Positions 302 to 26,192 of a stretch of DNA of 29,767 bases are shown piece by piece. How positions within the stretch are numbered: the first letter of the stretch is position 1; each line of letters opens with the position of its first letter. The DNA is taken from IMG/VR virus record IMGVR_UViG_2534681604_000009; one strand, written 5' to 3'. This DNA is from a virus. Its lineage: Duplodnaviria; Heunggongvirae; Uroviricota; Caudoviricetes. Both the position numbers and the translations under genes were made by a program. The notes below the pieces were generated by a model that made no database searches, was not told the DNA's origin, and saw only the letters and a list, made by a program, of their open reading frames with translations.

Positions 302-1465
302 TCACTCATCATCTTCTGTTTCATACTCCACATCAGAAAGTCTTACCTCAAGCTCCAAGGACGTCGTGAAGCCGCTATTATTCAGAAAATGTGTCACCTT
401 AGTGATTGTCCAGTCCTGCTCGTCTATGACGCGCTTAAAGCCAGACACTTTAACCGGTGTTTCCGTGTAAATATCTGCCCGACCGGTAGCCAGGCTGATG
501 GAGAACTCCGCAACGCCCCGTTGCAGTTTATCCCACTTCGCCTGAGCGGCGCGCATGGCCTGCGCTTTTGTGGCATATACCGTAGTCAGGGCAAAAACGT
601 TGTCAGCTTCACCGGCCATGTATTCACCTTCGCGCGCTTCCGGTACTTTTGGCGCTTTCTTCTGCGTGACTGGTTTCGCTTTCGGGTGCTCCAGTGCGCG
701 CAGGTGTTTCTCTTTCTTTTTGCGTTTCAGTTTTACCTTCTGCTTTTGCGGTTTCGGGTCTTTGGTGTGTAGCCATTTTGCCGTTACACCGGTGTAGGCT
801 CCACGGTCAGCAATCGCAAAATGATGACGGTCGCCGTCGCTGCGGGTGATGGTGACCTGCGGGATTTTTTTACCGCTGGCCGTCCCCCCCTGCCCCGCTT
901 TGAGAAACAACAGTTTTCCCATTTTTACCGACACCTCCCCGCCGTTGCGTTCAGCAAGACGGGTCAGGAATTTCGCATCAGACTCCTGCGACTGGTCGAT
1001 GTGCGGGATTTTAATTCCGGCCAGTGGCGGAGCGACACTGGCTTCCAGCCTGTTACGGGAGGCTATCGCCTCAACAATCGCACCGAGCGTGGTGTCATGC
1101 CAGGAGCCTTCACGGCGGGAATTGAGCGTGCCACGAAAATCTGCACTCCGGGCCCGGATGGTGACCACATCCGGCGCGCCCCGGTGTTCTACCTCATCAA
1201 CGGTGAATTTCCCTTTGCATACCAGGGCAAAACCTTTCCAGCCGATATACACCGTCAGGACAGCGCCACGAACCGGCAGCCCGACCTGCCCGTCGGCATC
1301 GTTCAGTTCAATATCAAGCTGGTCAGCCTCAAAACCCCGGTTATCCGTCAGGATCATACTCATCAGACGGTCGCTGATATTGCCGGTAATATCCCTGCTG
1401 TCGAGCATCAGCATGTAATCCGGCGTCAGCGTACTGCCTGCATCAAATGTCAGCGCATCCAGCAT
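302..1465 (-). CDS. D: Tail protein D (late control gene D protein)
   Basis: 387-aa ORF with an ATG start (cat at 1463..1465 on the + strand). Its length and its position between U and ogr match P2 gpD. It has a lysine-rich internal linker (KPQKQKVKLKRKKKEK). Confidence 0.9.
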   Translation of the reverse strand: MLDALTFDAGSTLTPDYMLMLDSRDITGNISDRLMSMILTDNRGFEADQLDIELNDADGQVGLPVRGAVLTVYIGWKGFALVCKGKFTVDEVEHRGAPDVVTIRARSADFRGTLNSRREGSWHDTTLGAIVEAIASRNRLEASVAPPLAGIKIPHIDQSQESDAKFLTRLAERNGGEVSVKMGKLLFLKAGQGGTASGKKIPQVTITRSDGDRHHFAIADRGAYTGVTAKWLHTKDPKPQKQKVKLKRKKKEKHLRALEHPKAKPVTQKKAPKVPEAREGEYMAGEADNVFALTTVYATKAQAMRAAQAKWDKLQRGVAEFSISLATGRADIYTETPVKVSGFKRVIDEQDWTITKVTHFLNNSGFTTSLELEVRLSDVEYETEDDE

Positions 1466-1958: not shown

Positions 1959-4406
1959 TTAACCGTCATGCATCATGCTGGCACGGGCGCGCGCACGTTT
2001 ATCCCGCTCGTATTTTTCGAGCGCATCCTGTAACTGGCGGTCAAGCTGTGCCCCCGGCGCAGTACCGCCCTTCAGGCTGATGTGATATTCGTTTTTACTC
2101 TGGTCCACATAAGAGCGACCAGCCGGTGCCGTGACCGGCTGATAAGCCTGATAGCCTGCATAAGAGCTGGTCGCCGGAATATAACCACCGGTGCCATACG
2201 TGGCGGCATTAGTCCTTGCGGCGGTCTGGTCAAGTGTGCCTGACTCTTTGTTGATGACACCGAGTTTTTCCAGTACCCAGTCAATACCACTGCGCAGTTT
2301 GTTGAACGCATTAAGCGGCAGCATCAGCGCGTCAGCCAGTGCCTGCCCGAACATGACGCCCGTGTCACGGCAACGGTTCAGGGTGTCCTGGGTGGCTTTG
2401 ACCGGGGCAATCAGGTTTTTAAACCACTGCCACGCGGCCTGTAACTTTTCACCCAGCCAGTCAAACACCGGCTTAAGTGGCGTGAACAGTTCCCCCACCG
2501 GCGCAAATGCCGCTTTCAGCCCTTCCACCACACCGCCAAAGAATGCGCTGACAGGCTCCCAGTATTTACGGATAAGTAACGCTCCGGCGACAATGGCGGC
2601 CACCACGGCCACTACCGGCCAGCTAATCGCCCCGATGGCCGTCATAACGGCACTGCCAACCGTCGTGAAGATTGCCCCCATTGCGCCTGCTGCTGCGATA
2701 ATGGCATTGATGCCGGTGATAACCGGCCAGGCTACGAGACCAATGGCACCGATGACACCAATCAGCGCCAGTGCACCACCGACAATGAGGCCGATGGTTG
2801 ACGCCAGTGATTTGTTTTTCTGGATCCAGCCGTCGAGTTTTAACACATATTTTGTGGCCGTCTGCGTGAGATTACGCAGTGCGCCTTCCTGCTGGTCAAA
2901 CAAGTCTGTCCCCACCGCCTCATAAGCGGACTGAAACTCCTTAAAGTCACCGCCGAGGTTGTCCTGCATGATATTTACCAGTTCTGCGGTCTTCCCGTCT
3001 GAGGCTTTAAACGCAGCAGTCAGTTTGTCCAGCTTTCCGGTTGACGCGGCAGTCATCAGCACAGCGGCGGCTGAGCTGGCCTCCTCCCCGAAAATAGTTT
3101 TCATGTATTCAGCCTGCTGGGCAGTACCGAGCCGGTTTTTCTCAAAACTGGCCTGCATTTCTTTCAGAATGGTAAATACTGGCCGGGTATTCCCCTTACT
3201 GTCTGAGGTTTTCACGCCAAGCTCTTTGAGTGCATCCCATGCTTTTCCCGTCGGTGCCTGCAGGCGGCTTAACACGGCACGGCTTCCCGTCCCCGCCATT
3301 GAGCCTGTGATTTTTGCATCATGCAGTACCCCGACCATTGCGGCGGTTTCTTCAATGCTGACACCGGCATTTTTTGCCACAGGTGCGGCATAGGTCAGCG
3401 CATCGCTCATGCCGTCAAAATCGGCGGCGGTTTTGTTCATCGTCATGGAGAGAACATCCCCGATATGAGCGACCTTATCGTTTGAAAGCTGAAAGGCGGA
3501 TTTCATCCCCATCAGCAGGGCGGCGTTTTCCTCCATCGTGCGGCGGTTTGCCAGCGCCATGTTCAGCGTGACCGGCGTTGCCGCCTGAATGGCATCAACA
3601 TCCCCACCGGCTTTTGCAATGATAATCTGTGCACCGGCTGCATCATCCGCCGAGGCGGCGGTATTGTCGCCGAGCTGGCGCGCCTGCTTGCGGAGTGCTG
3701 TCATTTCGGCGGAGTCTTTTGCCACTCCTAGCACGGCCTGCAATTCTGAGTTTTTCTGCGCAAACTCATAACCGGGCATCAGCAGCTTAACTCCGGCCAT
3801 CGTTCCCGCCGCCGCAATCCCCACACCGGCAGCGCCCACCGAGGCCATATTTCCGGCCAGCTCCTTTCCTGTCTGATAACGCTGTTTTACTGCGTTAAGT
3901 TTTGCCTGTTGCGCACTGACACGCGCCAGCGCATCACGCTGACGGTTAAGCTGTGTGGTGGTTTCGCTGATACGGTTTTTCAGCCCTCGTTCATCATGCG
4001 CCAGATTACGGGTATTAATACCCGCCTGACTCAATTCCTGACGCTGGCGCTGTACCGACAATCTCAGGCTGTTATATTTCGCCTGTAACTCAGACGCATT
4101 TTTACGCGCGGCTTCCATTGCCTTTGCCTGTGCATTTGTCGGTCGTTCAGTATTTTTAAACTGGACAGCCAGAGCTGCGGCTTCCTGTCTGGCTTTTTTC
4201 AGTTCCTGACCAGTCACGGCGAGCTGTGCGCTGGTCTTGCGAAATCCCTCAATACGGGATGCGTGACCGTTCAGCTCGCGCAGTGATTTTTGTGTTTCCC
4301 GGATATCCCCCGACAGCGACTTACTCGCTGTGCGGATGGATTTAAACGGGCGGGATGCCTGGTCAACAGCCCTGAGCAATACCTGTAATTTTACATTGTT
4401 ACTCAT
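1959..4406 (-). CDS. T: Tail tape measure protein T
   Basis: 815-aa ORF with a coiled-coil-rich N-terminal half and a hydrophobic Gly/Ala-rich central segment. It sits downstream of E/E', which is the standard chaperone then tape-measure arrangement. The size equals P2 gpT. Confidence 0.9.
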   Translation of the reverse strand: MSNNVKLQVLLRAVDQASRPFKSIRTASKSLSGDIRETQKSLRELNGHASRIEGFRKTSAQLAVTGQELKKARQEAAALAVQFKNTERPTNAQAKAMEAARKNASELQAKYNSLRLSVQRQRQELSQAGINTRNLAHDERGLKNRISETTTQLNRQRDALARVSAQQAKLNAVKQRYQTGKELAGNMASVGAAGVGIAAAGTMAGVKLLMPGYEFAQKNSELQAVLGVAKDSAEMTALRKQARQLGDNTAASADDAAGAQIIIAKAGGDVDAIQAATPVTLNMALANRRTMEENAALLMGMKSAFQLSNDKVAHIGDVLSMTMNKTAADFDGMSDALTYAAPVAKNAGVSIEETAAMVGVLHDAKITGSMAGTGSRAVLSRLQAPTGKAWDALKELGVKTSDSKGNTRPVFTILKEMQASFEKNRLGTAQQAEYMKTIFGEEASSAAAVLMTAASTGKLDKLTAAFKASDGKTAELVNIMQDNLGGDFKEFQSAYEAVGTDLFDQQEGALRNLTQTATKYVLKLDGWIQKNKSLASTIGLIVGGALALIGVIGAIGLVAWPVITGINAIIAAAGAMGAIFTTVGSAVMTAIGAISWPVVAVVAAIVAGALLIRKYWEPVSAFFGGVVEGLKAAFAPVGELFTPLKPVFDWLGEKLQAAWQWFKNLIAPVKATQDTLNRCRDTGVMFGQALADALMLPLNAFNKLRSGIDWVLEKLGVINKESGTLDQTAARTNAATYGTGGYIPATSSYAGYQAYQPVTAPAGRSYVDQSKNEYHISLKGGTAPGAQLDRQLQDALEKYERDKRARARASMMHDG

Positions 4407-4826
4407 TCGTGTTTCCGCTTCGCCGGAGCGCCTTTTCGCGCCATGTGATGAGTTCGGTCAGGCTCATGGGATACAGTTCTGATGGCGGCCAGTGAAATAT
4501 CACTGCCACATCCGCCATCAGGTCATCGACCGAGAGATTTTTCGGAAACGTCACTGCACCGAGTTCGGCGACAAAAAACCGACCACCTTACCGGCCAGTG
4601 CCACAAGGTCAGGCAGTTCCAGCGCGGCGACCTCCTGCTCGGTCAGCATCGGTGCCGTCATGCGCGGCAGCACTTTAATCAGTGCATCGACTTCGGAGTT
4701 TGCGACCGCAGCCAGACTGACACCGCGCAGCGTCCCGGCATTAGGTTTCATCAACGTGACCTGTTCGATTACCTGCTCACCACGCTTGACCGGATTGTCC
4801 AGGGTAATCACATTTTCTTTGTTCAT
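4399..4826 (-). CDS. E+E': Tail assembly chaperone E+E' (programmed -1 frameshift product, 142 aa)
   Basis: Manual translation: the 0 frame reads ...GKVVGFL through GGT TTT TTG. After a -1 slip on T_TTT_TTG the reading frame stays open for 57 further codons (VAELGAVTFPKN...RRSGNTNE) to a TAA at 4399..4401, overlapping the T start. The 142-aa total matches P2 gpE+E'. Confidence 0.72.
4551..4826 (-). CDS. E: Tail assembly chaperone E (unshifted product, 91 aa)
   Basis: 91-aa ORF MNKENVITLDNPVKRGEQ... directly upstream of T. The slippery site lies near its 3' end. Confidence 0.85.
   Translation of the reverse strand: MNKENVITLDNPVKRGEQVIEQVTLMKPNAGTLRGVSLAAVANSEVDALIKVLPRMTAPMLTEQEVAALELPDLVALAGKVVGFLSPNSVQ
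4572..4578 (-). other. Slippery heptamer T_TTT_TTG for the -1 ribosomal frameshift
   Basis: The + strand reads caaaaaa at 4572..4578, which is TTTTTTG on the coding (-) strand in X_XXY_YYZ register with the E frame. Confidence 0.7.
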
Positions 4827-4882: not shown

Positions 4883-5401
4883 TCACAGGCCGATATTGCG
4901 GCGGTGTTGCTCCAGCCGGTCGACGCCGTTCACCTTCTCAATCATGTTGATGGTGTCGATTTCGACCAGCTCCTTACCGTCCATCGTCAGCCGGAAATAG
5001 GTGCAGACCACAGAGATTTTCGACTCGGTGTCTTCTCCCTGTTTCCCCTCGCCGGTGTCGATTTCTTTCTGACGTCCACGCATGACCACTTCGACGGCCA
5101 CCGTTTCGCCGGTATCGTCACGCTGGTAAGAACCAGCAAAACGAATCGGCACGGCATCCACGCCGGTTGCGGCGTAAAGCTCCCAGATAACCGAATCCGG
5201 GAAGCCCCCGAGCGACCACTCCATTGACAGCGCATCGTCATCAAGGCCGAGGTCTACCGGTGCGCTGCCGTTCATCCCCGCACCGCGATAGTTTTCGAGC
5301 TTACGGGTCAGTTTTGGCAGCGTGACGGACTTTGCAACGCCCTGATAGCTGTAGCCGTTCAGAAAGACGTTCATTAACTTGAGTTTGCGCGGCATTGCCA
5401 T
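4883..5401 (-). CDS. FII: Tail tube protein FII
   Basis: 172-aa ORF downstream of FI with an ATG start confirmed. Size and synteny match P2 gpFII. Confidence 0.9.
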   Translation of the reverse strand: MAMPRKLKLMNVFLNGYSYQGVAKSVTLPKLTRKLENYRGAGMNGSAPVDLGLDDDALSMEWSLGGFPDSVIWELYAATGVDAVPIRFAGSYQRDDTGETVAVEVVMRGRQKEIDTGEGKQGEDTESKISVVCTYFRLTMDGKELVEIDTINMIEKVNGVDRLEQHRRNIGL

Positions 5402-5413
5402 CGGTCAGGCTCC

Positions 5414-6604
5414 TTAATTGCTGTTAACCGAAGTGACCAGACTTGCCAGGTATCTGGAAGTAATACGCTGGCGCAGGGTCAGATTTTCAAGAGGAGGCAC
5501 CGGGGTATAGTCGTAGTCGATATACAGTTTTCCGGCCTTGAGGGTTTCCGCATCGTTGGATTCTTCGCTGAACCAGCATGTGCCATCCACGATATAACCG
5601 TTGTTTTTCAGCTCACGGAATTTGGCATTGATGCCGTCAATGATGTCGCGAATCAGCGTTGCGGTGATGGGCTTATCAATAGCCCACATGTGCGCCTCAG
5701 CCATAGTGTCGGCCAGTACCTGCGCGGTGCGGGTGTAGCTTTCAAAGAGGAACAGCGGGTCATCGGAGCAGGTACGGTTACCCCAGAATCGGAAACCGTC
5801 GCGGCGAACCAGCGTTGTGACGCCTGCCTCGTTCAACAGGTCAGCATCAGTGCCGGACTTCTGCAAATCCCAGAATACAGATGCGCTGATGCCGGTAACA
5901 CCGTTTACCCCGACGTTGGACAGCGTTTTATGCCAGCCCTGCTCCTGGTCGATTTTAGCGCGCAGACCCAGCGCACGGGCGGTGGCATACGCGGTGGCGG
6001 TGGTACTGGTGACCGTATCCCATGCGAGGAAATCCGGCCAGATGACCATCAGCTCACGCTGGCTGAAATTCTGGCGGTAGGCTTTCACCTCGGAAATGGT
6101 TTTACAGCCCCATGCGCTGATATACCCGAATGCATTCAGTTCCTGGCATACCGATGCCAGTGCAACAGCCACCTCTTTGGTGTCCAGCCCCGGCACACCA
6201 AGAATGCGCGGTTTAACGCCGGTAACCGACTCAGCCCCCATCAGGGCTTTCAGTCCGGTGTACTGACCGTTTTCGTCGGTGGTGCCGATGATATTGGAAA
6301 CGGTCTGCGCGAGTTTCGTTTCCTCGTCGTCGCCGGTGCCGTCTTCCACACGCACGACAACGGTGACCGGTTTTGACTGGTCGGCGATGGCCTGCAACGA
6401 TGCCGCCAGCGTGCCTTTTTTACCAGCCTTTGCAATTGCGCTCTGCACATTGGTAATCAGCACCGGTTTATTGAGGGGGAAGGTTTCCGCATCCGCATCG
6501 CTGGCCGTGCAGACCATGCCGACAATGGCAGTGGATACGGTGGAAATGACGCGGGTGCCGTCGTTAATCTCCAGCACCTGCACGCCGTGATGATAGTCAC
6601 TCAT
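5414..6604 (-). CDS. FI: Contractile tail sheath protein FI
   Basis: 396-aa ORF and first gene of the FI-FII-E-T-U-D block. A GGAG sequence lies upstream of the ATG at 6602..6604 (- strand). Confidence 0.9.
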   Translation of the reverse strand: MSDYHHGVQVLEINDGTRVISTVSTAIVGMVCTASDADAETFPLNKPVLITNVQSAIAKAGKKGTLAASLQAIADQSKPVTVVVRVEDGTGDDEETKLAQTVSNIIGTTDENGQYTGLKALMGAESVTGVKPRILGVPGLDTKEVAVALASVCQELNAFGYISAWGCKTISEVKAYRQNFSQRELMVIWPDFLAWDTVTSTTATAYATARALGLRAKIDQEQGWHKTLSNVGVNGVTGISASVFWDLQKSGTDADLLNEAGVTTLVRRDGFRFWGNRTCSDDPLFLFESYTRTAQVLADTMAEAHMWAIDKPITATLIRDIIDGINAKFRELKNNGYIVDGTCWFSEESNDAETLKAGKLYIDYDYTPVPPLENLTLRQRITSRYLASLVTSVNSN

Positions 6605-6797: not shown

Positions 6798-6818
6798 TCT
6801 GCTTTGAGCGAGGAGCGG

Positions 6819-6840
6819 ACGATGAATTCGAATTCATCGT
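6819..6840. repeat. Perfect 22-bp palindrome ACGATGAATTC|GAATTCATCGT (candidate operator)
   Basis: Read directly from the sequence; it is its own reverse complement and contains two abutting GAATTC hexamers. It lies about 105 bp upstream of the cargo ORF start. Confidence 0.5.
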
Positions 6841-6945
6841 AAAAATTTTTATGGCCAAGTAGCTCTATAAGGCCTTTCATTAAAGCTATCTTTGTCACAA
6901 AGCTTATGCAAAAAGTGACTTTATCTTTAAATCTAATAAGATAAC

Positions 6946-7761
6946 ATGATTGACGAAACTCCAAAATCAACTTTACTTAAGCAAAAACGAGGCATGCAAT
7001 TGAAAAAGATTAGGAAAATCAATAAAAAAATCATTGATGAATTGCTATCTCTTCGCGAATCAAGAGGAGCTATAGAAGACTTCTCAATGTCTTTCCTACT
7101 AAATTTTGCAGAAAATTGTCGACTTATGCATTCACTTATTTCAACGAAAGATAAGAAAATAGATATTTACAAAACAGCATATCGACAATATTTTGTATTT
7201 CTAATCAGTTGCTGGGAAACCTATTTTAGAGACGTTTTTGTTTTCGTGCACTCAGTTGATGAATCTAGAATTGCAACACTACTATCTAAAATGAGAACAG
7301 AAACATCTATCAATATAAATACCGAGATAAATCTATCAGAATTATTGAGTAAAAGCTTTAACTTTCAAAACTTAAACGACCTTGAAGAAGCATATAATGG
7401 CATGTGGGGTGAGAGCTTTTTAGACTACATATGTACAACTAATATATCGCCTTGCGGTCTGAGTGGCCAGATTTCCCAAGGTTTATCGATAGAAAATATA
7501 TTTCCAGACTGGAGAGCCCTCATAGAGGAAGCATTTTACATTAGGCACAAAGTGGTTCACGATGCAAACTTCAGACCTAAAGTCAACATTGAATTAATCA
7601 GTAAGGTAGAGACTTTGTTTTTAATAATCCCTCAATTTGCAACGCATATCATATCAGAAAGATTCAACTTAAAAAAAATCGTCATTTCAGATGGTCAAAA
7701 TAACCATACCTATATTCTCAATGTCAGTGATATATTATCTGATGATTGGGTTGTTAGTTGA
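6946..7761 (+). CDS. Hypothetical protein, AT-rich cargo ORF at the Z/fun-equivalent variable locus (candidate defence or abortive-infection gene)
   Basis: 271-aa ORF in opposite orientation to the flanking late genes, visibly AT-rich (about 30 percent GC in the 60-nt blocks I counted). It lies between G and FI, the position of Z/fun in P2. An R-x4-H motif (IRHKVVHD, codons 7543..7560) is present. The start is uncertain: 6946 has a weak SD and an alternative ATG is at 6994. Confidence 0.7.
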   Translation: MIDETPKSTLLKQKRGMQLKKIRKINKKIIDELLSLRESRGAIEDFSMSFLLNFAENCRLMHSLISTKDKKIDIYKTAYRQYFVFLISCWETYFRDVFVFVHSVDESRIATLLSKMRTETSININTEINLSELLSKSFNFQNLNDLEEAYNGMWGESFLDYICTTNISPCGLSGQISQGLSIENIFPDWRALIEEAFYIRHKVVHDANFRPKVNIELISKVETLFLIIPQFATHIISERFNLKKIVISDGQNNHTYILNVSDILSDDWVVS

Positions 7762-7784
7762 TGATGGAATTGTAAGTATATTAA

Positions 7785-7834
7785 CACAAAAAACAAAGAA
7801 ACTAATGAAGTCCGCTTCTGGCACAGAGCGGACT
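7785..7834 (-). terminator. Rho-independent terminator after G (end of the V-W-J-I-H-G operon)
   Basis: Stem aGTCCGCT (7809..7816), loop tctggcacag, stem AGCGGACt (7827..7834). On the - strand it is followed by the U-rich tract UUCAUUAGUUUCUUUGUUUUUUGUGUU. A weaker T-run lies on the + strand side, so it may act in both directions. Confidence 0.5.
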
Positions 7835-7894: not shown

Positions 7895-8473
7895 TTATTG
7901 TGGCATTTCAGGCCATTCTATATCCGGAGCATCTTCCGGCTGAACGCGATTCAGTAGCACACGGTATTTTTTCCAGTGTGTCAGACTTAACTTTTCTTCC
8001 TCGGTAGCCATATCTAAATCGACAGCATCCTGCAGCGTGGCAATAATTTCACCGGCATATGCAATCTGCTCTTTCCTCTGAGACTCCGCCGCTCTGACAA
8101 GTGCATCACGCTCTGCATTCTCATCATTCACCCACGCATTTCCGTTCCATTTCTGATAATCCCCATCCGGGGAAATGGCTGTCACGTCAGGTGGTAATGC
8201 ACCAAGTTCAGAAATATATATGGCTGCTCCTGTTTTTGTTTCATAGACAGTTTTCCCACGATGGTCCTCTATCAAATGCCATTTCATTTCGTCTGCATTG
8301 AAAACGGCAGCATAGCCAGCCGGAATATCTGGAGGTGCAATGTCTGTACTGTTTGCAGGCAGACCAGTATGCGGCGGAATATATGCATCGCTTTCGCCAA
8401 TAAATTCATTGCTTCCATCCAGTAAATTAAATACACGAATAGTTTGTGCCTCTGCACTCATTCTGAAAGTCAT
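7895..8473 (-). CDS. G: Tail fibre assembly chaperone G
   Basis: 192-aa ORF immediately downstream of H, with a TAATG stop/start overlap. Position matches P2 gpG. Confidence 0.85.
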
Positions 8474-10251
8474 TATGCCAGCCTCACAATATAGTTAAAT
8501 GCGATGTTTTTAACGGTGTTTTCTGAATTACCCGTAGCATTTACCGTGATGGTATGTCCGTGCGCCCCCAATGCCACAGTGTGTGCATGGGCACCAATAC
8601 CTACGGTGTGGTTATGTTGACCAATGTCGACAGTATGAGCATGGTTCCCTGCTGCACTTGATGTTCCATTAAATGATGGATTATCAAAACCTGTATAACC
8701 GGTTTCACTGTTGGTTCTGGCATTACCCCTGTAAATGGTATGGGTATGATTACCTGTTGTATTGGTGGTTTTGGTGCCATGGTTAAACGTGCTGACTGTC
8801 TTCGTGCCGTAATCAAATGAACTTGTCGTTTTCGTTCCTAAATCCGTATTTGACGCACTGGCGCTGTGAGTATGCGATTTAATACCGTCCTGTTCCTGAG
8901 ACAATACAGCACGACCACTAGCGGGTTTACCCTTGATTATCCAGCCGCGCAAATCTGGAATCACTCCTGACGGATAAGCGACTGCAAGCAGGGGATAGGC
9001 TGCTTTATCAAAAGTCTGCCCCTGCATAATGGCATAGCCTGTAGGTACTGAATCAGAAGGCCACGGGATCGGAGCACCTGCCGGAAAGTTGTTGTACCCG
9101 TCATGATGAATCAACTTCCAGCCTTTAAAAACACCTGCGCAAACTGCCGCAAAACCGATTACATCTCCATTAAAATCAATGCCAATAACAGTATTGTATC
9201 CCTGAGTATTGCTGTGTGCAGAGTTGATGTAGTGCTTCCAGGTGTGTCCTCCAGGCATTCCATTCTTTGCTGAGGAAGCATTAAAAAAGCCACCACGCGT
9301 ACGTAAATCAGTAGCAATATCACTTATATTTTCGGCGTACTCATTTAATCCCGCTCCTTTAGGTACTCGCTTGTTTGCATTGTCATTAGCAGCTTTCACT
9401 GCTTTCGGAGTCGCGGCAAGCGTTTCAGAATCGCTGTTGGTGGCACTACTTAGCTGGACAAGCCCTTTTCGTGCCGTGGTGGCGTCCTGTGCGGTGTATT
9501 TGCCATTAGCAAGGTCATATGCTGTCTTAACCGCCTTTGGCGTTGCTGCGAGCGTCTCAGATTCGCTGTTGGTGGCACTACTTAGCTGAACAAGACCTTT
9601 TCGCCCCGTGCTGGCGTCCTGAGCGGTATATTTTCCGTTAGCAAGGTCATACGCTGCCTTAACCGCCTTCGGCGTTGCGGCCAGCGTTTCAGATTCACTA
9701 TTGGTCGCGCTGCTTAACTGAGTAAAACCTTTTGCAGTCAGTGAGGCGTCCGGATGGCGTCGTGACTGTTCGTGCTCTGCAATTTTGTCATCAACGTAAT
9801 CCTGCGTCGCCATCACCGTTGTGGTGTCGATGGTCAGATCCACTGAGGCCACACTGCTGACGATAATGACCATGCGGCAGGTCTGCGAACGTCCTGAGCC
9901 TTCGGCAAGGGCAGGCTTATAACTTTCGGCCATGTTCGCCACGGCAATTAACGCACCGGTATCATCGTACAGACCAAGTTCACGCATCCAGAAACCGCCC
10001 ACCTCCGGCGGGATGACCAGCTCTGCGATAATATAATTACTGTGTCGATTGTCCTGACTGATTTTATTCAGGGCATGTCGCCAGACCTCATTAACAAGTT
10101 TTGTCTGTCCGGCATCCGGCACCGGCAATTGACCGCCACCGTCCCCGACGGCCATCGTGGTAATGTTGACCTTCCTGCCTCCCGGTGCAGTCGCCGCTGC
10201 CAGCTTTGCTGCACCGGCAGTAGTGATAACGGTTTGGAACTTTACGCTCAT
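8473..10251 (-). CDS. H: Tail fibre protein H
   Basis: 592-aa ORF with a conserved P2-like N-terminus, internal tandem repeats and a C-terminal region rich in HxH motifs (HTH, HAH, HNH, HGH). Confidence 0.9.
9382..9725. repeat. Tandem repeat of about 126 bp, about 2.7 copies, inside H
   Basis: Three near-identical protein units [35 protein letters not shown](S/T)T(G/A)RKGLVQ at H residues about 179..290. The DNA repeats are visible at 9400..9720. Confidence 0.7.
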
Positions 10252-19010: not shown

Positions 19011-19117
19011 CCTCCGCCATCAGTCCCGGATGGCTTATCACTGACACAACAGCACCTTAGCGAATCGCAGGGCGCGACTCAGTAGCCTTGCCGTGTATTC
19101 ATCACGGCGAGGTATTC
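19011..19117. promoter_or_regulatory. Divergent O/P intergenic region; expected to hold the Ogr-dependent late promoters P_O and P_P
   Basis: Placed by synteny with P2, where O and P are divergently transcribed. I could not identify an exact TGT-N12-ACA element. Confidence 0.35.
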
Positions 19118-20890
19118 ATGACCATCACCACAGACACCACTCTTTTACACGACCCGCGTCGTCAGGCGGCGCTGCTGTACTGGCAGGGATTTTCCGTGCC
19201 GCAGATTGCCGCCATGTTGCAGATGAAACGCCCGACGGTGCAGAGCTGGAAACAGCGCGACGGCTGGGACAGCGTTGCCCCCATCAGCCGTGTCGAAATG
19301 AGTCTGGAAGCGCGGCTGACCCAGCTCATCATCAAACCGCAGAAAACCGGCGGTGATTTCAAGGAAATTGACCTGCTGGGACGCCAGATTGAACGACTGG
19401 CACGGGTAAACCGCTACAGCCAGACCGGCAACGAGGGAGACCTTAATCCGAACGTCGCTAACCGCAACAAAGGCGGGCGGCGCAAACCGAAAAAGAATTT
19501 TTTCAGTGACGAGGCCATCGAAAAGCTGGAGCAGATTTTCTTTGAGCAGTCTTTCGATTATCAGTTGCACTGGTATCGCGCCGGGCTTGAGCACCGCATC
19601 CGCGATATCCTGAAATCCCGCCAGATTGGCGCGACGTTTTATTTTTCCCGCGAGGCGCTGCTGCGCGCCCTGAAAACCGGTCATAACCAGATTTTTCTGT
19701 CGGCCAGTAAAACGCAGGCGTATGTGTTCCGTGAATACATCATCGCCTTTGCCCGTCTGGTTGACGTTGACCTGACCGGTGACCCGATTGTCCTGGGCAA
19801 TAACGGCGCAAAACTGATTTTTCTCGGCACCAACTCCAACACCGCGCAGAGCCATAACGGCGACCTGTACGTCGACGAGATTTTCTGGATCCCGAATTTT
19901 CAGGTGCTGCGTAAGGTGGCATCAGGTATGGCCTCACAGAGTCACCTGCGATCGACCTATTTCTCCACCCCGTCCACGCTGGCGCACGACGCCTACCCGT
20001 TCTGGTCGGGTGAACTGTTCAACCGGGGACGCGCCAGCGCCGCCGAACGCGTGGAAATCGACGTCAGTCATAACGCCCTTGCCGGTGGGCTTCTCTGTGC
20101 GGACGGCCAGTGGCGGCAGATTGTCACCATTGAGGACGCCCTGAAAGGCGGCTGCACGCTGTTCGACATTGAGCAGCTCAAACGCGAAAACAGTGCCGAC
20201 GATTTTAAAAACCTGTTCATGTGTGAATTTGTTGACGACAAGGCATCGGTGTTCCCGTTCGAGGAGCTGCAACGCTGCATGGTCGACACGCTGGAAGAAT
20301 GGGAAGACTATGCGCCGTTTGCCACCAATCCGTTCGGCTCCCGCCCGGTATGGATTGGTTACGACCCGTCACACCGTGGCGACAGCGCCGGATGCGTGGT
20401 GCTGGCACCGCCGGTGGTGGCCGGTGGCAAATTCAGAATACTTGAGCGTCACCAGTGGAAAGGCATGGACTTTGCCACTCAGGCTGAATCCATCCGCAAA
20501 CTCACCGAAAAATACAACGTCGAATACATCGGAATTGATGCCACCGGCCTCGGTGTCGGCGTGTTCCAGCTCGTGCGCTCGTTCTATCCCGCCGCGCGCG
20601 ACATCCGCTACACGCCGGAAATGAAAACCGCAATGGTGCTCAAGGCAAAAGACGTCATCCGCCGTGGCTGTCTGGAATATGACGTCAGCGCCACCGACAT
20701 CACCAGCTCGTTTATGGCTATCCGCAAGACCATGACCAGCAGCGGACGCAGCGCCACCTATGAGGCCAGCCGCAGCGAGGAAGCCAGCCACGCCGACCTC
20801 GCCTGGGCAACCATGCACGCCCTTTTAAATGAGCCACTCACCGCCGGTATCAGCACCCCGCTGACATCCACCATTCTGGAGTTTTACTGA
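19118..20890 (+). CDS. P: Terminase ATPase (large) subunit P
   Basis: Trimmed to the ATG at 19118, which is preceded by GAGG. This gives a 590-aa product MTITTDTTLLHDPRRQ.... Confidence 0.9.
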   Translation: MTITTDTTLLHDPRRQAALLYWQGFSVPQIAAMLQMKRPTVQSWKQRDGWDSVAPISRVEMSLEARLTQLIIKPQKTGGDFKEIDLLGRQIERLARVNRYSQTGNEGDLNPNVANRNKGGRRKPKKNFFSDEAIEKLEQIFFEQSFDYQLHWYRAGLEHRIRDILKSRQIGATFYFSREALLRALKTGHNQIFLSASKTQAYVFREYIIAFARLVDVDLTGDPIVLGNNGAKLIFLGTNSNTAQSHNGDLYVDEIFWIPNFQVLRKVASGMASQSHLRSTYFSTPSTLAHDAYPFWSGELFNRGRASAAERVEIDVSHNALAGGLLCADGQWRQIVTIEDALKGGCTLFDIEQLKRENSADDFKNLFMCEFVDDKASVFPFEELQRCMVDTLEEWEDYAPFATNPFGSRPVWIGYDPSHRGDSAGCVVLAPPVVAGGKFRILERHQWKGMDFATQAESIRKLTEKYNVEYIGIDATGLGVGVFQLVRSFYPAARDIRYTPEMKTAMVLKAKDVIRRGCLEYDVSATDITSSFMAIRKTMTSSGRSATYEASRSEEASHADLAWATMHALLNEPLTAGISTPLTSTILEFY

Positions 20891-21924
20891 TGAGCAAGAA
20901 AAAAGGGAAAACACCGCAACCTGCGGCAAAAACAATGACCGCCAGCGCCCCGAAAATGGAGGCATTCACCTTTGGCGAGCCGGTGCCGGTACTCGACCGC
21001 CGTGACATTCTGGATTACGTCGAATGCATCAGTAACGGCAGATGGTATGAGCCGCCGGTCAGCTTTACCGGTCTGGCCAAAAGCCTGCGTGCTGCCGTGC
21101 ATCACAGCTCACCGATTTACGTCAAACGTAATATTCTGGCCTCGACATTTATCCCGCATCCGTGGCTTTCCCAGCAGGATTTCAGCCGCTTTGTGCTGGA
21201 TTTTCTGGTGTTCGGTAATGCGTTTCTGGAAAAGCGATACAGCACCACCGGTAAGGTCTTCAGACTGGAAACCTCACCGGCAAAATATACCCGCCGTGGC
21301 GTGGAGGAGGATGTTTACTGGTGGGTGCCGTCCTTCAACGAGCCGACACCTTTCGCGCCCGGCTCCGTGTTTCACCTGCTGGAGCCGGATATTAATCAGG
21401 AGCTGTACGGCCTGCCGGAATATCTCAGCGCCCTTAACTCTGCCTGGCTGAATGAGTCGGCCACGCTGTTCCGCCGCAAGTATTACGAAAACGGCGCACA
21501 TGCCGGATATATCATGTATATCACCGACGCATTGCAGGACCGCGATTACATTGACTCACTCCGCGAAAACATGGCTAATTCGAAAGGCCGCAATAACTTT
21601 AAAAATCTGTTTCTCTATGCCCCACAGGGAAAGCCAGACGGCATCAAAATTATCCCGCTCAGTGAAGTGGCGACAAAGGACGATTTTTTTAATATCAAAA
21701 AATCCAGCGCCGCAGATCTGCTGGACGCGCACCGCATCCCCTTTCAGTTGATGGGCGGCAAGCCGGAGAATGTCGGGTCGCTGGGTGATATTGAGAAAGT
21801 GGCAAAGGTCTTTGTCCGCAATGAGCTTATCCCGCTACAGGACAGGATTCGGGAAATAAACGGCTGGCTCGGCCAGGAGGTCATCCGCTTTAAAAACTAC
21901 TCACTGGACACTGACAACGGCTGA
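20890..21924 (+). CDS. Q: Portal protein Q
   Basis: 344-aa ORF whose ATG overlaps the P stop (TGATG). It is the last gene before cos. Confidence 0.9.
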   Translation: MSKKKGKTPQPAAKTMTASAPKMEAFTFGEPVPVLDRRDILDYVECISNGRWYEPPVSFTGLAKSLRAAVHHSSPIYVKRNILASTFIPHPWLSQQDFSRFVLDFLVFGNAFLEKRYSTTGKVFRLETSPAKYTRRGVEEDVYWWVPSFNEPTPFAPGSVFHLLEPDINQELYGLPEYLSALNSAWLNESATLFRRKYYENGAHAGYIMYITDALQDRDYIDSLRENMANSKGRNNFKNLFLYAPQGKPDGIKIIPLSEVATKDDFFNIKKSSAADLLDAHRIPFQLMGGKPENVGSLGDIEKVAKVFVRNELIPLQDRIREINGWLGQEVIRFKNYSLDTDNG

Positions 21925-22253: not shown

Positions 22254-23576
22254 TTAGTTTGTTTTTTTAACTCCACTGTATTCAGCTATCATCCTCTCAA
22301 CCGCTGGAAGCAACTCAGCAGGAACGCAAATAGACCTATCTGCCTTTCCAACATCTTTTGGCGTTTTGTAAGTACCATTATAATTAAGGACGCATTCTTT
22401 AAGAATTTCAAAAAGAGAAACAATAGGGTCCACGCCATAGCTATCAATAAACTTTCGATAGCCATCATTATCAGATAACGATGAAATATCTCCATGAACA
22501 AACTTACACCTAAGCTCATAGATTATTCCTATTTTTGAATCAATATCAATAATTTTCGCCGCATCTCTGCAAACACCGCCAATAATTGAATTTTTATTAC
22601 CATTATTGGTTCCATACATAGCATCCAATGCTATAAATTGATTCAAAAACCTTTCACGTTTGTCATCCCTCCACCCGTGCGCTATAAAGGAAAGAGCAGA
22701 CAACATCCTTTTATCAGGTGATGAAAGTATTTTTGTAAGTATCGCCAAGGCTGAATCCGTTATATTTAAATTATATACAGACGGAATATTCACTCGAAAC
22801 TCACTTTCATGATATTTCCCGACACCAAAAGACTCAACTAGATTATTAACAGCAACTCGATTAATCACAAAAGGATTATCAACTGCAAGACATAAAGCTC
22901 CAAACAAACTATCAAACATTTTCACCGCTTTATCCTCTGATGAAGCATATGCCACCACCAAGCAGGATTTTGACTGTCGAAAATATTTCCCAATTGGTTT
23001 ATGCCGCATATATTCATCATCATAAAAATCAACAGGAACCTTGATGTCAGTTTTGTCTTTAATATCAGAAAGTAATTCCACCCCTAGCCCCGGGCCATAT
23101 AAAAATAAATTTTCTCTAAGCTCAAGCTTCCCATCAAAGCCAGCACACCCAAGATTATAAATATATGGACAGGATTTTATTCGTGAACGTATATAATACT
23201 TAAACATCTCACTAAGATTTTTTCTATGAACTTGCGTTATAATATCATCAACACAAATCTTATCAGGATTAAGCGACAGAAAATCAGCATCAATGCGATT
23301 GAAGGCTTCAGAACAAAAACCTAACAATAATCTTTTCGCATTGTGAAGGTCACTTATACCTAATTGGGGACCATATGCTTTTAATAACCTACTAGCACAT
23401 TTTGCAATCTCCTCATCATTATATGCAAGCCAAAAAACAAAATCTTCTAATGCTTTACCGACTTGAATACAAGGCTGCTCCTTACCATGACTATAAAAAA
23501 AACTTTTGCATAATTTGTTTATCATGCCATTAGAGAACGCAACCTTCATAGATACTTCATCCCTTAACGCACTCAT
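22254..23576 (-). CDS. Hypothetical protein, AT-rich cargo ORF at the tin/old-equivalent variable locus (candidate defence or abortive-infection gene)
   Basis: 440-aa ORF co-oriented with and just downstream of A, visibly AT-rich (about 33 to 35 percent GC in the blocks counted). An R-x4-H motif (ELRCKFVHGD, codons 22494..22511) lies in the C-terminal third. An alternative start at Met10 (23549) has an AGGGA SD-like sequence upstream. Confidence 0.72.
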   Translation of the reverse strand: MSALRDEVSMKVAFSNGMINKLCKSFFYSHGKEQPCIQVGKALEDFVFWLAYNDEEIAKCASRLLKAYGPQLGISDLHNAKRLLLGFCSEAFNRIDADFLSLNPDKICVDDIITQVHRKNLSEMFKYYIRSRIKSCPYIYNLGCAGFDGKLELRENLFLYGPGLGVELLSDIKDKTDIKVPVDFYDDEYMRHKPIGKYFRQSKSCLVVAYASSEDKAVKMFDSLFGALCLAVDNPFVINRVAVNNLVESFGVGKYHESEFRVNIPSVYNLNITDSALAILTKILSSPDKRMLSALSFIAHGWRDDKRERFLNQFIALDAMYGTNNGNKNSIIGGVCRDAAKIIDIDSKIGIIYELRCKFVHGDISSLSDNDGYRKFIDSYGVDPIVSLFEILKECVLNYNGTYKTPKDVGKADRSICVPAELLPAVERMIAEYSGVKKTN

Positions 23577-23659: not shown

Positions 23660-25927
23660 TTAAGAAAACATCACCCAATCGTCTTTTACAGCATAACTAA
23701 ACCGCTCACCTTCATAAATTACTGTTGCCCCGCGCGCCAACGCCTCAAGCTCCCATCGCTGCGGCCTGATACCGTTCTGAGCAAGGTCAACACGGATACG
23801 GGTGATTTGCAATCGTTCAGACCGGGTCAATCTGGCCGATGGTGCAATTTCATGTGGTTTTAACGGGCTTCCGTTTCTTTGCTGACGGTTTGGTGTTCTC
23901 AGGTCGTGTTTTAATGCGCCCCTGAGCGCCCTCACGACCTCCGTGTCATTCCATTCGATAACACCGTCATCAACCAGATTAAGCACTGCTGCGGCGTGTT
24001 CAGAAGGTGTGGGAGCCGGTAACGAAGTATCATCACCGGTGAGCTTTCCACAGTTATTGACAGGACTCCGAGGCGCGGCGATGCCGCTTTTTAAAGTCAA
24101 AGGCTCAACGACCGGAACTTTCGGCACAATGCGCCAGTCCGTCGTTCTGGTGATATGAATATGACGCGCGCCGAGATGCGGCGCGTAAATGCCGACCACT
24201 CTCTCGACTTCTTCCTCATACTCGTTAACGTCATCCGACGGGCTACGGGCAACCCTGACAGTCTGACAATCGCGCGGGACATTTGCCCCACCCTGCGCGC
24301 TGATATACAACGCAAAATCACCACTGTCTGCGGCAGCGCGAGCAGCCTCGACGCGTTCGTCAAACTCATCCGCAATACTGACGCCGCGAGGCAATTTGCG
24401 TAGTTCACGGTAAGCCCCCATTGTCGGCAGTCCAACCGTTTTAAATTGCGGGATGCGCCACGTTGACGCCCATGCGGTAACAGCCGCCGCAGTATCTTTC
24501 AGCGGTCTGCCGGTATCGTTATCGAGCTGACCATCCAGTGCATAGCCGTCGATATTTTTCGAAATGTATTTCGCGATATATCCCGCAGCACCGCCCCGGT
24601 TAAGGTGTTTTGCCTGAAAACGGTTTCGCGCGGCTCCTCTTTCGTCGCCATCCTCTTTGAGCGCATAGCGACGCATGATTTCGATAATCTGGTTACGCTG
24701 GCGTGGATTACAAAAAAGCATCATATGCCAGTGCGGCGTTCCGTCGTGGTGTGGCTCGACGACTCGCAAACCGTAGACCTGTAAATCATTATCCTTGAAT
24801 GCCGTGCGCATCAGGCTCCAGATACGGCAGAGATAACGCTGCGCATCCTTTGGATTAAATGCCTCATCATTCCAGCCGTGATTAAGCTGGACGGTTTTAT
24901 TTTCGCCTTTTCCAACCTGACGTGTCGGGTGATACTTTGACGGCGCGGTAAGCGTGATAAACATCCCCACATCACCCTCTGAGGCGGCGTAACGCTCAAT
25001 ACCGGCAATGGTGTTCATCAGCTCCATCCGGCGAATTTCAGGATTAGAAATACTGCCCATCACCTTACTGATAAGGTCGATGCGCTCGCCGGTTTCCTTG
25101 TTTTCAAGGTCACACGATTTAAGAAATTCCAGATTTGCCTGGCGGCGCGCACGCACATCACGAATGGCATGTTTACTGGCATAAGGAGAACGGTCTTTAT
25201 TCACCTCCCCAACAGCAATCAGTAACGCCTCATGCCAGCGCATACGCTGGCCTTTAAGCTGATGAGTCCACCACTCATCGTTAAACAGACGGGCAATGGC
25301 AGAATATGCCTGCCTCGTGGTCATCTGTCCTTTACGGTATTTTTTCCAGTAGAGAGGGGAAATATTGAAAGCACGTGCAGCGCCAGCAACATGACCATAG
25401 AGGTGAGCCTGCGCCTCATCCGTAAACAGCGATTCTTTCTCGCCATGCGCATCCACCCAGGCATCGCAGAGTTCCTCATACATCATGAAAAGCTGTGATG
25501 AGATACGGGCGGCAAACTTTTTCAGCTCCTTGTCATTCATCCCCGGCAGGCGCGCATACTGGTCGCGCTCTGCCAGAAACAGCAACGACGCGTCGGTGTT
25601 CATTTCATGGCGCTGATTCACGCGCTCAATGCGCGGCCATAAACGACGCTGAAAAGTGGATGTGAGGAAATAAAACCCGTGCACCGGGCTTTTATTGCGC
25701 CGGATGTAGTCATAGCGTGAAGTAAACAGCGAGCGCAAAAAGTAAGGCAGGCGGTTAATCGTGGATAAAACACCTTGCACCTGACGCATCTCGTCACGTG
25801 TAAGGGGTCTTTCGCGCCCGACAGCCTCGCGTGGCGCGTTCCATGCATAAGCACCGGTAAACGCCTTACCGGTGCCTGCGGCAAATGCTGACGGAGGGAC
25901 AAAACGCCCGGAGGCTTTAACGGCCAT
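23660..25927 (-). CDS. A: Replication initiation protein A (rolling-circle HUH nickase)
   Basis: Large ORF with an HUH-like motif (PHWHMMLF) and paired tyrosines (YIAKYISK). The track ORF begins with TTG at 25969; I prefer the ATG at 25925..25927 (MAVKASGRF...), but the start is uncertain. Confidence 0.88.
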   Translation of the reverse strand: MAVKASGRFVPPSAFAAGTGKAFTGAYAWNAPREAVGRERPLTRDEMRQVQGVLSTINRLPYFLRSLFTSRYDYIRRNKSPVHGFYFLTSTFQRRLWPRIERVNQRHEMNTDASLLFLAERDQYARLPGMNDKELKKFAARISSQLFMMYEELCDAWVDAHGEKESLFTDEAQAHLYGHVAGAARAFNISPLYWKKYRKGQMTTRQAYSAIARLFNDEWWTHQLKGQRMRWHEALLIAVGEVNKDRSPYASKHAIRDVRARRQANLEFLKSCDLENKETGERIDLISKVMGSISNPEIRRMELMNTIAGIERYAASEGDVGMFITLTAPSKYHPTRQVGKGENKTVQLNHGWNDEAFNPKDAQRYLCRIWSLMRTAFKDNDLQVYGLRVVEPHHDGTPHWHMMLFCNPRQRNQIIEIMRRYALKEDGDERGAARNRFQAKHLNRGGAAGYIAKYISKNIDGYALDGQLDNDTGRPLKDTAAAVTAWASTWRIPQFKTVGLPTMGAYRELRKLPRGVSIADEFDERVEAARAAADSGDFALYISAQGGANVPRDCQTVRVARSPSDDVNEYEEEVERVVGIYAPHLGARHIHITRTTDWRIVPKVPVVEPLTLKSGIAAPRSPVNNCGKLTGDDTSLPAPTPSEHAAAVLNLVDDGVIEWNDTEVVRALRGALKHDLRTPNRQQRNGSPLKPHEIAPSARLTRSERLQITRIRVDLAQNGIRPQRWELEALARGATVIYEGERFSYAVKDDWVMFS
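24050..24078 (-). other. ori: Candidate origin of replication (A-protein nick region) inside the A coding sequence
   Basis: The - strand reads GCGCCTCGGAGTCCTGTCAATAACTGTGG, encoding APRSPVNNCG of gpA. P2 ori is known to lie within gene A, and this matches my recollection of the nick-region sequence, which I cannot verify here. Confidence 0.4.
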
Positions 25928-26192
25928 ATGAGCCAAAAGCCTCAGAACAACGCTTGCTGAGTTGCTCAACCTGCGCGTTTAAATCAGCAAAAGACTTTGC
26001 GCCTCCGGTCAGAATATCGTGATGCATCAGGCCGGAAACGAGCTGGCTTAATTTCGGGTAATAACCAACCACCGCCAGCCATTCCTGACCGACGTTTTTA
26101 CCGCTTTCCGCTCTCTTTTTCTCGTGGAGAATAAACTGAAAGCTGTCACTGGTAACGACATAACGTTCGCCAATTTCAATACGAATACTCAT
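25917..26192 (-). CDS. Hypothetical early protein
   Basis: 91-aa ORF with an ATG start, located directly upstream of A in the early operon. Confidence 0.6.
   Translation of the reverse strand: MSIRIEIGERYVVTSDSFQFILHEKKRAESGKNVGQEWLAVVGYYPKLSQLVSGLMHHDILTGGAKSFADLNAQVEQLSKRCSEAFGSYGR

Follow-up and report, generated by a model that had tools for sequence, protein, structure and literature searches.

Two genes of low guanine-cytosine (GC) content in one prophage raise the question addressed here: does a short motif shared by their products mark a nuclease active site, or is it a coincidence? The stretch of DNA analyzed (hereafter the window) is the 29,767-nucleotide IMG/VR record IMGVR_UViG_2534681604_000009, assigned to the Caudoviricetes, and the whole of it is a P2-like prophage. 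One of the two cargo genes encodes a protein of 271 amino acids (aa), and the other a protein of 440 aa. An initial annotation made from the sequence had noticed an R-x-K-hydrophobic-V-H-[DG] motif in both proteins, had taken its R-x4-H core for the active-site signature of HEPN RNases, and had called its sharing by two cargo genes of one prophage notable. Our analysis supports the reading of the shared R-x4-H as a conserved HEPN active site with predicted catalysis, and it is very likely that both proteins contain HEPN domains with a functional-looking active site. This reading holds because of family-level evidence, not because of the motif itself.

Both motifs were read from the sequence and the translations at the coordinates and on the strands given earlier (Table 1). 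In the 271-aa protein, R200-H-K-V-V-H205 is flanked by I199 and D206, and the interval 7543..7560 covers six of the eight residues originally quoted; in the 440-aa protein, R356-C-K-F-V-H361 is flanked by L355 and G362. The suggested check of motif frequency went against the signature, and R-x4-H alone fits chance: composition-preserving shuffling of the 271-aa and 440-aa proteins produced it in 25% and 29% of cases, respectively (R-x4-6-H in 58-64%), and 12 of the 29 large open reading frames (ORFs) of the window contain it, tail, terminase, portal and replication proteins among them. Direct comparison of the two proteins gave a similar result. Aligned without gaps, RHKVVHD and RCKFVHG score 17 (BLOSUM62), which ranks 37th among 115,010 7-mer pairs between the two proteins and was reached by all 500 shuffles. 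The full pattern R-x-K-h-V-H-[DG] (h, hydrophobic) is rare in shuffles (~1e-4), but it was set post hoc and this figure is therefore without weight. Pairwise BLASTP of the two proteins returned no significant high-scoring segment pair, the best being YIRHKVV/YMRHKPI (E=2.3). These numbers speak for an alternative in which the shared motif is coincidental, the folds are unrelated and R-x4-H has no catalytic meaning. As a pairwise resemblance, then, the motif is not notable beyond chance; what stands is its conservation at the family level, where the R and the H are invariant.

For the 271-aa protein, 71 homologues were detectable, most of them with a precomputed match to the Pfam family PF18735 (HEPN_RiboL-PSP). 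In an alignment of 59 sequences (A1; the window protein and 58 homologues), R200, H201, H205 and R210 are invariant in 59/59, and so are E91, T92 and R95. The window protein matches PF18735 at E=6e-6 over model positions 7-173 (167 of 191). Nine homologues (45-58% identity) scanned singly all exceed the gathering cut-off of this family (28.4 bits), with scores of 28.9-39.6 bits, and PF18735 was found at E<=0.01 in 55 of the 59 A1 sequences, with a best value of 6.8e-12. Judged by these sequence comparisons, the 271-aa protein is a member of the RiboL-PSP-HEPN family, its membership being clear at the level of the family; the window protein itself falls marginally below the cut-off. Sequence and profile searches of the PDB with this protein and with A1 found nothing relevant.

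The 440-aa protein has 26 close homologues, with which it was aligned (A2; 27 sequences, numbered as the protein minus 1). R356 is present in 27/27 and H361 in 26/27 of them, and R307-E-R-F-L-N312 and F314-D318 (R306..N311 and F313..D317 in A2 numbers) are invariant. A profile search of 1.84 billion cluster representatives yielded 228 proteins at E<=1e-3 for this family, most of them 400-460 aa long and aligned only at profile positions ~270-390, at their own C-termini. In a wider alignment of 91 sequences (A3), consisting of 90 distant relatives (12-20% identical) and the window protein, invariance (91/91) is confined to R356 and H361, and D318, A319, G322, G362, Y376 and P384 are at least 90% conserved. 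The protein has no Pfam, NCBIfam or PADLOC match, and the same is true of its close and distant relatives; sequence and profile searches of the PDB with the protein, A2 and A3 found nothing relevant either. It matches PHROG 23812 over its full length, and despite this match a tblastn search found the protein in none of 50,697 deposited phage genome records. The 440-aa protein belongs to a HEPN family (~400-460 aa) that lies outside current Pfam and PADLOC models.

These alignments also show which parts of the shared motif are not general. K and V inside it are not, position 358 being mostly E across the wider 440-aa family. The YMRHK at aa 189-193 of the 440-aa protein, 167 residues upstream of the motif, had been regarded as an echo of the YIRHK of the smaller protein; it is a chance likeness, since its columns are variable in A2 (EMQHE, DIRDE and others) and Y198 of the 271-aa protein is variable too. 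YMRHK was also considered as a second, degenerate site and was rejected because it is not conserved in the family.

We then compared structure models of both proteins with the published description of the HEPN superfamily, which defines the place of R-x4-6-H (Anantharaman et al. 2013, PMC3710099). The fold is an up-down bundle of four helices arranged as two alpha-hairpins; helices 2 and 3 are often separated by an insert, and helix 2 typically carries a conserved acidic residue in E-x3-[KR] (PMC3710099). The RNase activity of HEPN domains is metal-independent and depends on the R and the H. The family alignments served as input for AlphaFold models; the numbering of the 440-aa model is that of the protein minus 1, M1 being missing from the first row. 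The 271-aa model has a predicted local distance difference test score (pLDDT) of 83.9 and a predicted template modelling score (pTM) of 0.84, with a pLDDT of 96-98 in the motif blocks; the corresponding values for the 440-aa model are 77.9, 0.69 and 88-89. In the 271-aa model, R200-H205 ends the helix at 189-205; a loop comes next and leads into a long helix at 215-240, and a large insert (aa 106-185) separates core helices 2 and 3. In the 440-aa model, R356-H361 ends the helix at 344-359 (model numbering) and is followed by a loop and helices at 370-397. Both models show the four-helix bundle of HEPN, with the motif in the position expected of it. E91 and D318 are located in the long helix preceding the motif helix. 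The 271-aa family has its acidic helix-2 residue within E-x3-[KR] (E91-x3-R95, in the helix at 69-104), and its invariant H201 supplies the polar residue (N, D or H) expected after the R. The structures listed for the 440-aa model were 8xdj (7.3), HI0074 (6.9), AbiA (6.9), 1wwp (6.8), 4nqf (6.5), Csm6 (6.4) and 2hsb (6.3), with 7ae2, 5yep, sacsin, YutE, Csx1 and AbiV as further entries.

Several other results weigh against a HEPN active site in both proteins. The window 271-aa protein itself scores 26.7 bits, just below the PF18735 cut-off, and a Foldseek search of the PDB with its model found nothing. In the 440-aa family, close homologues have C or S directly after the R and the wider family has S, N or C, residues that are small and partly polar but outside the usual set of N, D or H, and D318 lies in 'ALDAxxG' at the end of helix 2, not in E-x3-[KR]. 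The profile-profile alignment that had been proposed as a check gave a divided answer. With alignments of close homologues, hhalign assigned a probability of 1% to the whole proteins, a further point for coincidence, and with the domain regions of the narrow families the motif came into register without reaching significance (P=0.084). With the diverse C-terminal profile of A3, the motif helices of both families were in register at P=1.3e-4, though this better result spans just 22 columns at a probability of 53%.

Set against these points, PF18735 membership, the position of the motif, the invariance of its R and H, and the A3 profile alignment support R-x4-H as a HEPN RNase signature in both proteins. 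A coincidental motif in unrelated folds is very improbable on this evidence and looks refuted already. The two proteins share the HEPN superfamily fold and the active-site helix, but they belong to different families and have no recent common origin.

The HEPN reading is mostly known already and largely restates existing annotation, both exact sequences being in public databases. The 271-aa protein is identical to WP_000564685.1, 'HEPN domain-containing protein' of Escherichia fergusonii, and its near-identical variants in E. coli carry the name 'RiboL-PSP-HEPN domain-containing protein'. The 440-aa protein and its 99%-identical variant WP_063267205 are 'HEPN domain-containing protein' in RefSeq, and RefSeq/UniRef thus already name both cargo proteins 'HEPN domain-containing'. 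Among the arrangements of the P2 hotspot, Table S5A of Rousset et al. 2022 gives WP_063267205 as a single gene labelled 'HEPN_Apea' (PMC9122126). For the 440-aa family the labels conflict: 'HEPN_Apea' or 'Apea-like' in Rousset 2022 and one UniRef entry stand against the lack of a Pfam HEPN_Apea match.

The location of the two genes is summarized in Table 1. Their GC content (32.8% for the 271-aa gene and 35.3% for the 440-aa gene) is far below that of the window (52%) and of neighbouring genes (45-56%). Pfam matches on the flanks place the 271-aa ORF between FI and G, with transcription opposing the flanking late genes, a position that matches Z/fun of P2, between G and FI (PMC13586616). The 440-aa ORF lies between Q and A, exactly at the gpA-gpQ site that Rousset et al. 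2022 defined as the old/tin hotspot (PMC9122126), where its 99%-identical variant was catalogued. The earlier description of two cargo genes in two hotspots was correct. Inside the tail fibre gene H, positions 9404..9733 of the window contain a 132-bp tandem repeat (2.5 copies, 84% matches), consistent with the three Phage_fiber_2 repeat stretches that Pfam finds in the same protein.

Table 1. Genes, protein domains and motifs of the window, in order of position
Feature	Position	Strand	Basis
Baseplate hub D	302..1465	-	Pfam scan, large ORFs
Tape measure	1959..4406	-	Pfam scan, large ORFs
Tail tube FII	4883..5401	-	Pfam scan, large ORFs
Tail sheath FI	5414..6604	-	Pfam scan, large ORFs
Mobile cassette, ~1.03 kb, carrying the 271-aa gene	~6802..7829	+	Megablast match limited to 6801..7829
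271-aa cargo gene, RiboL-PSP-HEPN family	6946..7761	+	ORF; Pfam; exact match WP_000564685.1
HEPN domain, ~aa 43-240 of the 271-aa protein	7072..7665	+	Core helices 43-63, 69-104, 189-205 and 215-240
E91-T-Y-F-R95 (E-x3-R), core helix 2, second conserved HEPN element	7216..7230	+	A1; model; PMC3710099
R200-H-K-V-V-H205, predicted catalytic R-x4-H, end of core helix 3	7543..7560	+	Sequence, conservation, model
C-terminal tail of the 271-aa protein, aa 241-271, beta hairpin and short helix ('HTYILNVSDILSDDWVV')	7666..7758	+	Model: strands 246-248 and 253-257, helix 260-264
Tail-fibre assembly G	7895..8473	-	Pfam scan, large ORFs
Tail fibre H	8473..10251	-	Pfam scan, large ORFs
Terminase P	19088..20890	+	Pfam scan, large ORFs
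Portal Q	20890..21924	+	Pfam scan, large ORFs
440-aa cargo gene	22254..23576	-	ORF; flanks by Pfam; RefSeq name
HEPN domain, ~aa 274-398 of the 440-aa protein, all helical	22383..22757	-	Core helix 3, aa 345-360; kinked helix 4, aa 371-398
R356-C-K-F-V-H361, predicted catalytic R-x4-H, end of core helix 3	22494..22511	-	Sequence, conservation, model
F314-I-A-L-D318-A-M-Y-G322, conserved block ending core helix 2, acidic D318	22611..22637	-	A3, A2
N-terminal alpha/beta domain, aa 1-273 of the 440-aa protein	22758..23576	-	Secondary structure of model
Y189-M-R-H-K193, 'echo' of YIRHK	22998..23012	-	Variable A2 columns; N-terminal domain
Replication protein A	23660..25969	-	Pfam scan, large ORFs
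Integrase	28772..29767	+	Pfam scan, large ORFs

Both genes are also found outside this prophage. Copies of the cassette that carries the 271-aa gene, each 97.7% identical to it, lie next to the side tail fibre genes of the lambdoid Escherichia phage PhiR11_1 and, adjoining ybhB, in an E. coli prophage remnant. In PhiR11_1 and the ybhB-side island, exact 15-bp direct repeats, GTCCGCTTCTGGCAC, bracket the cassette 1,053 bp apart (4812..4826 and 5865..5879 in locus L012; 3957..3971 and 5010..5024 in locus L002), and two such matches were seen in 0 of 200 shuffles. The window has an exact copy on the downstream side only (7810..7824, + strand); upstream, at 6806..6820 (- strand), there is an inverted GTCCGCTTCTGGCAC with three mismatches, which could be due to chance. 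The repeat may be a cassette-boundary or recombination motif. At 6819..6840 (+ strand), ~105 bp upstream of the 271-aa start, lies a perfect palindrome with a 9-bp stem, ACGATGAATTCGAATTCATCGT, which includes an EcoRI site and is followed by AAAAATTTTT; it is kept in all three cassette contexts and could be an operator or an insulating terminator. Outside P2, in the lambdoid phage and the prophage remnant, the 271-aa gene is the third of a conserved trio with a 456-aa gene (annotated in L002 as encoding an FRG-domain protein) and a gene for a 350-aa hypothetical protein (L002 1105..3669 and L012 1960..4524). The P2-like prophage received only the last gene of this trio.

In a P2-like prophage of Enterobacter kobei, a homologue with 52% identity to the 271-aa protein is inserted at a third cargo site, lying between V and S, and P2-like phages therefore have at least one further insertion site. 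At this site (L003 6001..7933), between the genes for baseplate spike V and tail completion S, the homologue adjoins a 316-aa gene with a weak nucleoside 2-deoxyribosyltransferase-like match. Other homologues lie beside a DUF4062 gene or share an island with NACHT, AbiGi, MtlR and Shedu-domain genes. Homologues of the 440-aa protein include one in Enterobacter hormaechei at the gpA-gpQ hotspot, as in the window, another in a Vibrio island that also carries CBASS and a HEPN/RES-NTD1 + RES-domain gene, and a third in Pseudoalteromonas, where Schlafen, helicase and Ymh genes occupy the island with it. The Vibrio homologue (P0084) always lies between an upstream 222-aa gene with no Pfam match and a downstream 374-aa HNH_5 gene (L004 5079..8521, L005 5079..8521 and L006 349..3791), with a phage-type integrase beyond in two of the three loci. 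This trio may be a three-gene mobile unit or system, and it is absent from the P2 context.

The presence of both genes in one prophage, and the fact that HEPN active sites are composite and formed across dimers (DARNA, HepS), would allow the two proteins to cooperate, for example as a heterodimer with one composite HEPN site. Their distribution argues otherwise. A survey of 5,426 complete E. coli genomes found the 271-aa gene in 28 and the 440-aa gene in 46; a single genome has both, 1.1 Mb apart, against ~0.24 expected by chance. Moreover, each gene is found alone in other phages and islands, and the two families differ outside the motif. Cooperation is thus extremely improbable, and a functional link of the two genes was rejected on co-occurrence. 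They are two independent acquisitions and not a working pair, and their sharing of a prophage is a coincidence.

What might the two proteins do? For the smaller one, the nearest named family is 'Ribo L-PSP-HEPN', which has a conserved R-x4-6-H and is distantly related to AbiD/AbiF (Anantharaman et al. 2013, PMC3710099). The 271-aa protein resembles it in its alignment over 167 of the 191 PF18735 positions with R-x4-H kept; it differs in being a stand-alone protein, with neither a fusion to endoRNase L-PSP nor a ParB neighbour, and in having extra N-terminal helices, a large insert that separates helix 2 from helix 3, a small beta hairpin at the C-terminus and carriage by temperate phages. A literature search found no experimental study of this family. 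A second comparison is offered by HepS of the Gifsy-1 prophage, a solo HEPN abortive-infection protein of <250 aa with R100-H105, which is activated by a phage structural protein to cut tRNA and is often located in prophages (PMC13043305). Like HepS, the 271-aa protein has R-x4-H, lacks a partner and is encoded by a solo HEPN gene that occupies an accessory slot in a temperate prophage. HepS is its closest functional analogue and the best model for how it may work. No sequence relationship and no top-ranking structural one was found between them, and HepS does not qualify as a relative.

The C-terminal ~30 residues of the 271-aa family have the consensus PYIFxxxDILAxDWxxV. In 15 of the 59 family members they give sub-threshold matches to PF11195 (Tad2-like/DUF2829, a domain of Thoeris anti-defence), covering positions 40-73 of 73, the C-terminal half, with a best E of 1.2e-4. 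With 13-19 bits against a gathering cut-off of 25, the tail does not reach Tad2-like/DUF2829 membership, and the Pfam scan of the window protein itself found no PF11195 match. The tail could be a small ligand-binding or oligomerisation element. That the protein binds a nucleotide signal through a Tad2/DUF2829-like C-terminal hairpin is a weaker, second possibility.

For the 440-aa protein, we infer that the N-terminal alpha/beta domain is a sensor or regulatory part. Its layout recalls ApeA, a single-gene HEPN tRNA anticodon nuclease (Gao et al. 2020; bioRxiv 10.64898/2026.01.26.701840), in that one polypeptide carries non-HEPN N-terminal domains followed by a C-terminal HEPN effector. ApeA is predominantly helical, with three domains and an insertion-rich, split HEPN_ApeA at 335-583 of Ec2ApeA; it forms doughnut-shaped decamers or dodecamers, is activated by 5'-phosphorylated deoxydinucleotides and cuts tRNA anticodon loops (bioRxiv 10.64898/2026.01.26.701840). 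The window protein could accordingly be taken for a shortened, divergent ApeA, an oligomeric tRNA anticodon nuclease activated in the same way. Besides the layout, this is favoured by the tag 'HEPN_Apea' given to WP_063267205 in Table S5A of Rousset 2022 and by the UniRef name of the homologue P0098, 'Apea-like HEPN domain-containing protein'. The profile searches tell against it: HEPN_Apea of Pfam-A 2025 was not found at E<=10 in the 440-aa protein, its 26 close homologues or 10 intermediate ones, nor at E<=0.01 among the 90 distant relatives, and the PADLOC ApeA models gave none at E<=1. The architecture differs as well. The 440-aa protein is shorter, with ~270 N-terminal residues of mixed alpha/beta structure in place of the largely helical N and Mid domains, and its HEPN domain is compact (~125 aa) without the large ApeA insertions; the A2 and A3 profiles find no PDB sequence. 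An ApeA identity is thus quite unlikely. DARNA (PD-T7-3), a HEPN tRNase activated by single-stranded DNA, has an N-terminal HEPN domain and an all-helical Pds5-like C-terminal domain (bioRxiv 10.64898/2026.02.22.705581); compared with it, the domain order of the 440-aa protein is reversed, its HEPN domain being C-terminal, and there is no PADLOC PD-T7-3 match. The 440-aa protein may possibly typify a large clade of single-polypeptide immune proteins in which a compact C-terminal HEPN effector, with only its R and H universal, is joined to fast-diverging N-terminal sensors of ~270-300 aa, although this suggestion is rather doubtful. Such a clade would be distinct from ApeA, DARNA and HepS and without a solved structure, and it could have a new trigger or mode of activation.

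Taken together, it is likely that the window holds two low-GC, single-gene HEPN cassettes of different families in two hotspots, each encoding an enzyme that cleaves RNA when triggered by infection; the RNase activity, target, trigger and defence phenotype are what we infer in this proposal. By analogy, an anti-phage abortive-infection role is reasonably probable for both, and the two genes are probably independent, single-gene candidates for anti-phage suicide nucleases. In the proposed mechanism, each protein would be made in the lysogen in an inactive state. HEPN domains would pair, as dimers or higher oligomers, to give a composite active site, in which the R and H at the end of core helix 3 would face the acidic residue of helix 2 (E91 in the smaller protein and D318 in the larger). 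A cue from an infecting phage would be sensed by the non-HEPN parts (in the larger protein the N-terminal alpha/beta domain, in the smaller one its insert and termini) and would switch the enzyme on. The active enzyme would then cut host RNA, most likely tRNA anticodon loops or mRNA, so that translation stops and the infection is aborted. This scheme starts from the fold, motif position, conservation, family membership of the 271-aa protein, hotspot locations and mobility described above, and its further steps are inferred from established HEPN biochemistry and the precedents of HepS, ApeA and DARNA.

Some observations weigh against a defence role. PADLOC has no known or candidate defence model for either protein, and none for the 90 distant relatives of the 440-aa protein. 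Neither cargo gene is among the systems cloned and validated by Rousset et al. 2022 (PMC9122126). A 'putative HEPN' of the P2 hotspot of E. coli S88 (pFR103) belongs to their additional tested systems and not to the validated ones (PMC9122126), so that presence in this hotspot does not by itself make a HEPN gene active against a small phage panel. We considered whether pFR103 is the 440-aa protein and rejected this, as the cloned sequence encodes a different protein.

The main alternative to abortive infection is a toxin or another role that benefits the phage. Both proteins would then be genuine HEPN RNases serving as prophage addiction or stabilisation toxins or as regulators of the phage's own RNA, or, in the case of the 271-aa protein with its Tad2-like tail, as an anti-defence factor. 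The surroundings tell against this alternative: neither gene has a partner or antitoxin gene next to it in the window, the homologue contexts examined have no partner gene in common, and searches of the window for Rfam RNAs and for antitoxin-like tandem repeats found none. For anti-defence, the Tad2-like match spans ~30 residues, stays below threshold and is missing from the window protein. In addition, homologues lie among CBASS, RES, Shedu, NACHT and AbiG genes, and the closest precedents for solo prophage HEPN proteins are defence proteins (PMC13043305). We therefore regard a non-defence role as unlikely and continue to favour abortive infection.

In conclusion, a motif that looked no different from chance on inspection alone resolves, with high confidence, into a real HEPN active site, which is a clarification more than a discovery. 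Two HEPN cargo genes in one P2-like prophage fit the view of the hotspots as reservoirs of anti-phage genes. In practical terms, they provide two single-gene candidates with clear catalytic residues (R200/H205 and R356/H361), and the 440-aa protein represents a family of at least 228 cluster representatives that is missed by current detection tools. Identification of the trigger and the RNA target would extend the small set of understood solo HEPN immune proteins, now comprising HepS, ApeA and DARNA.

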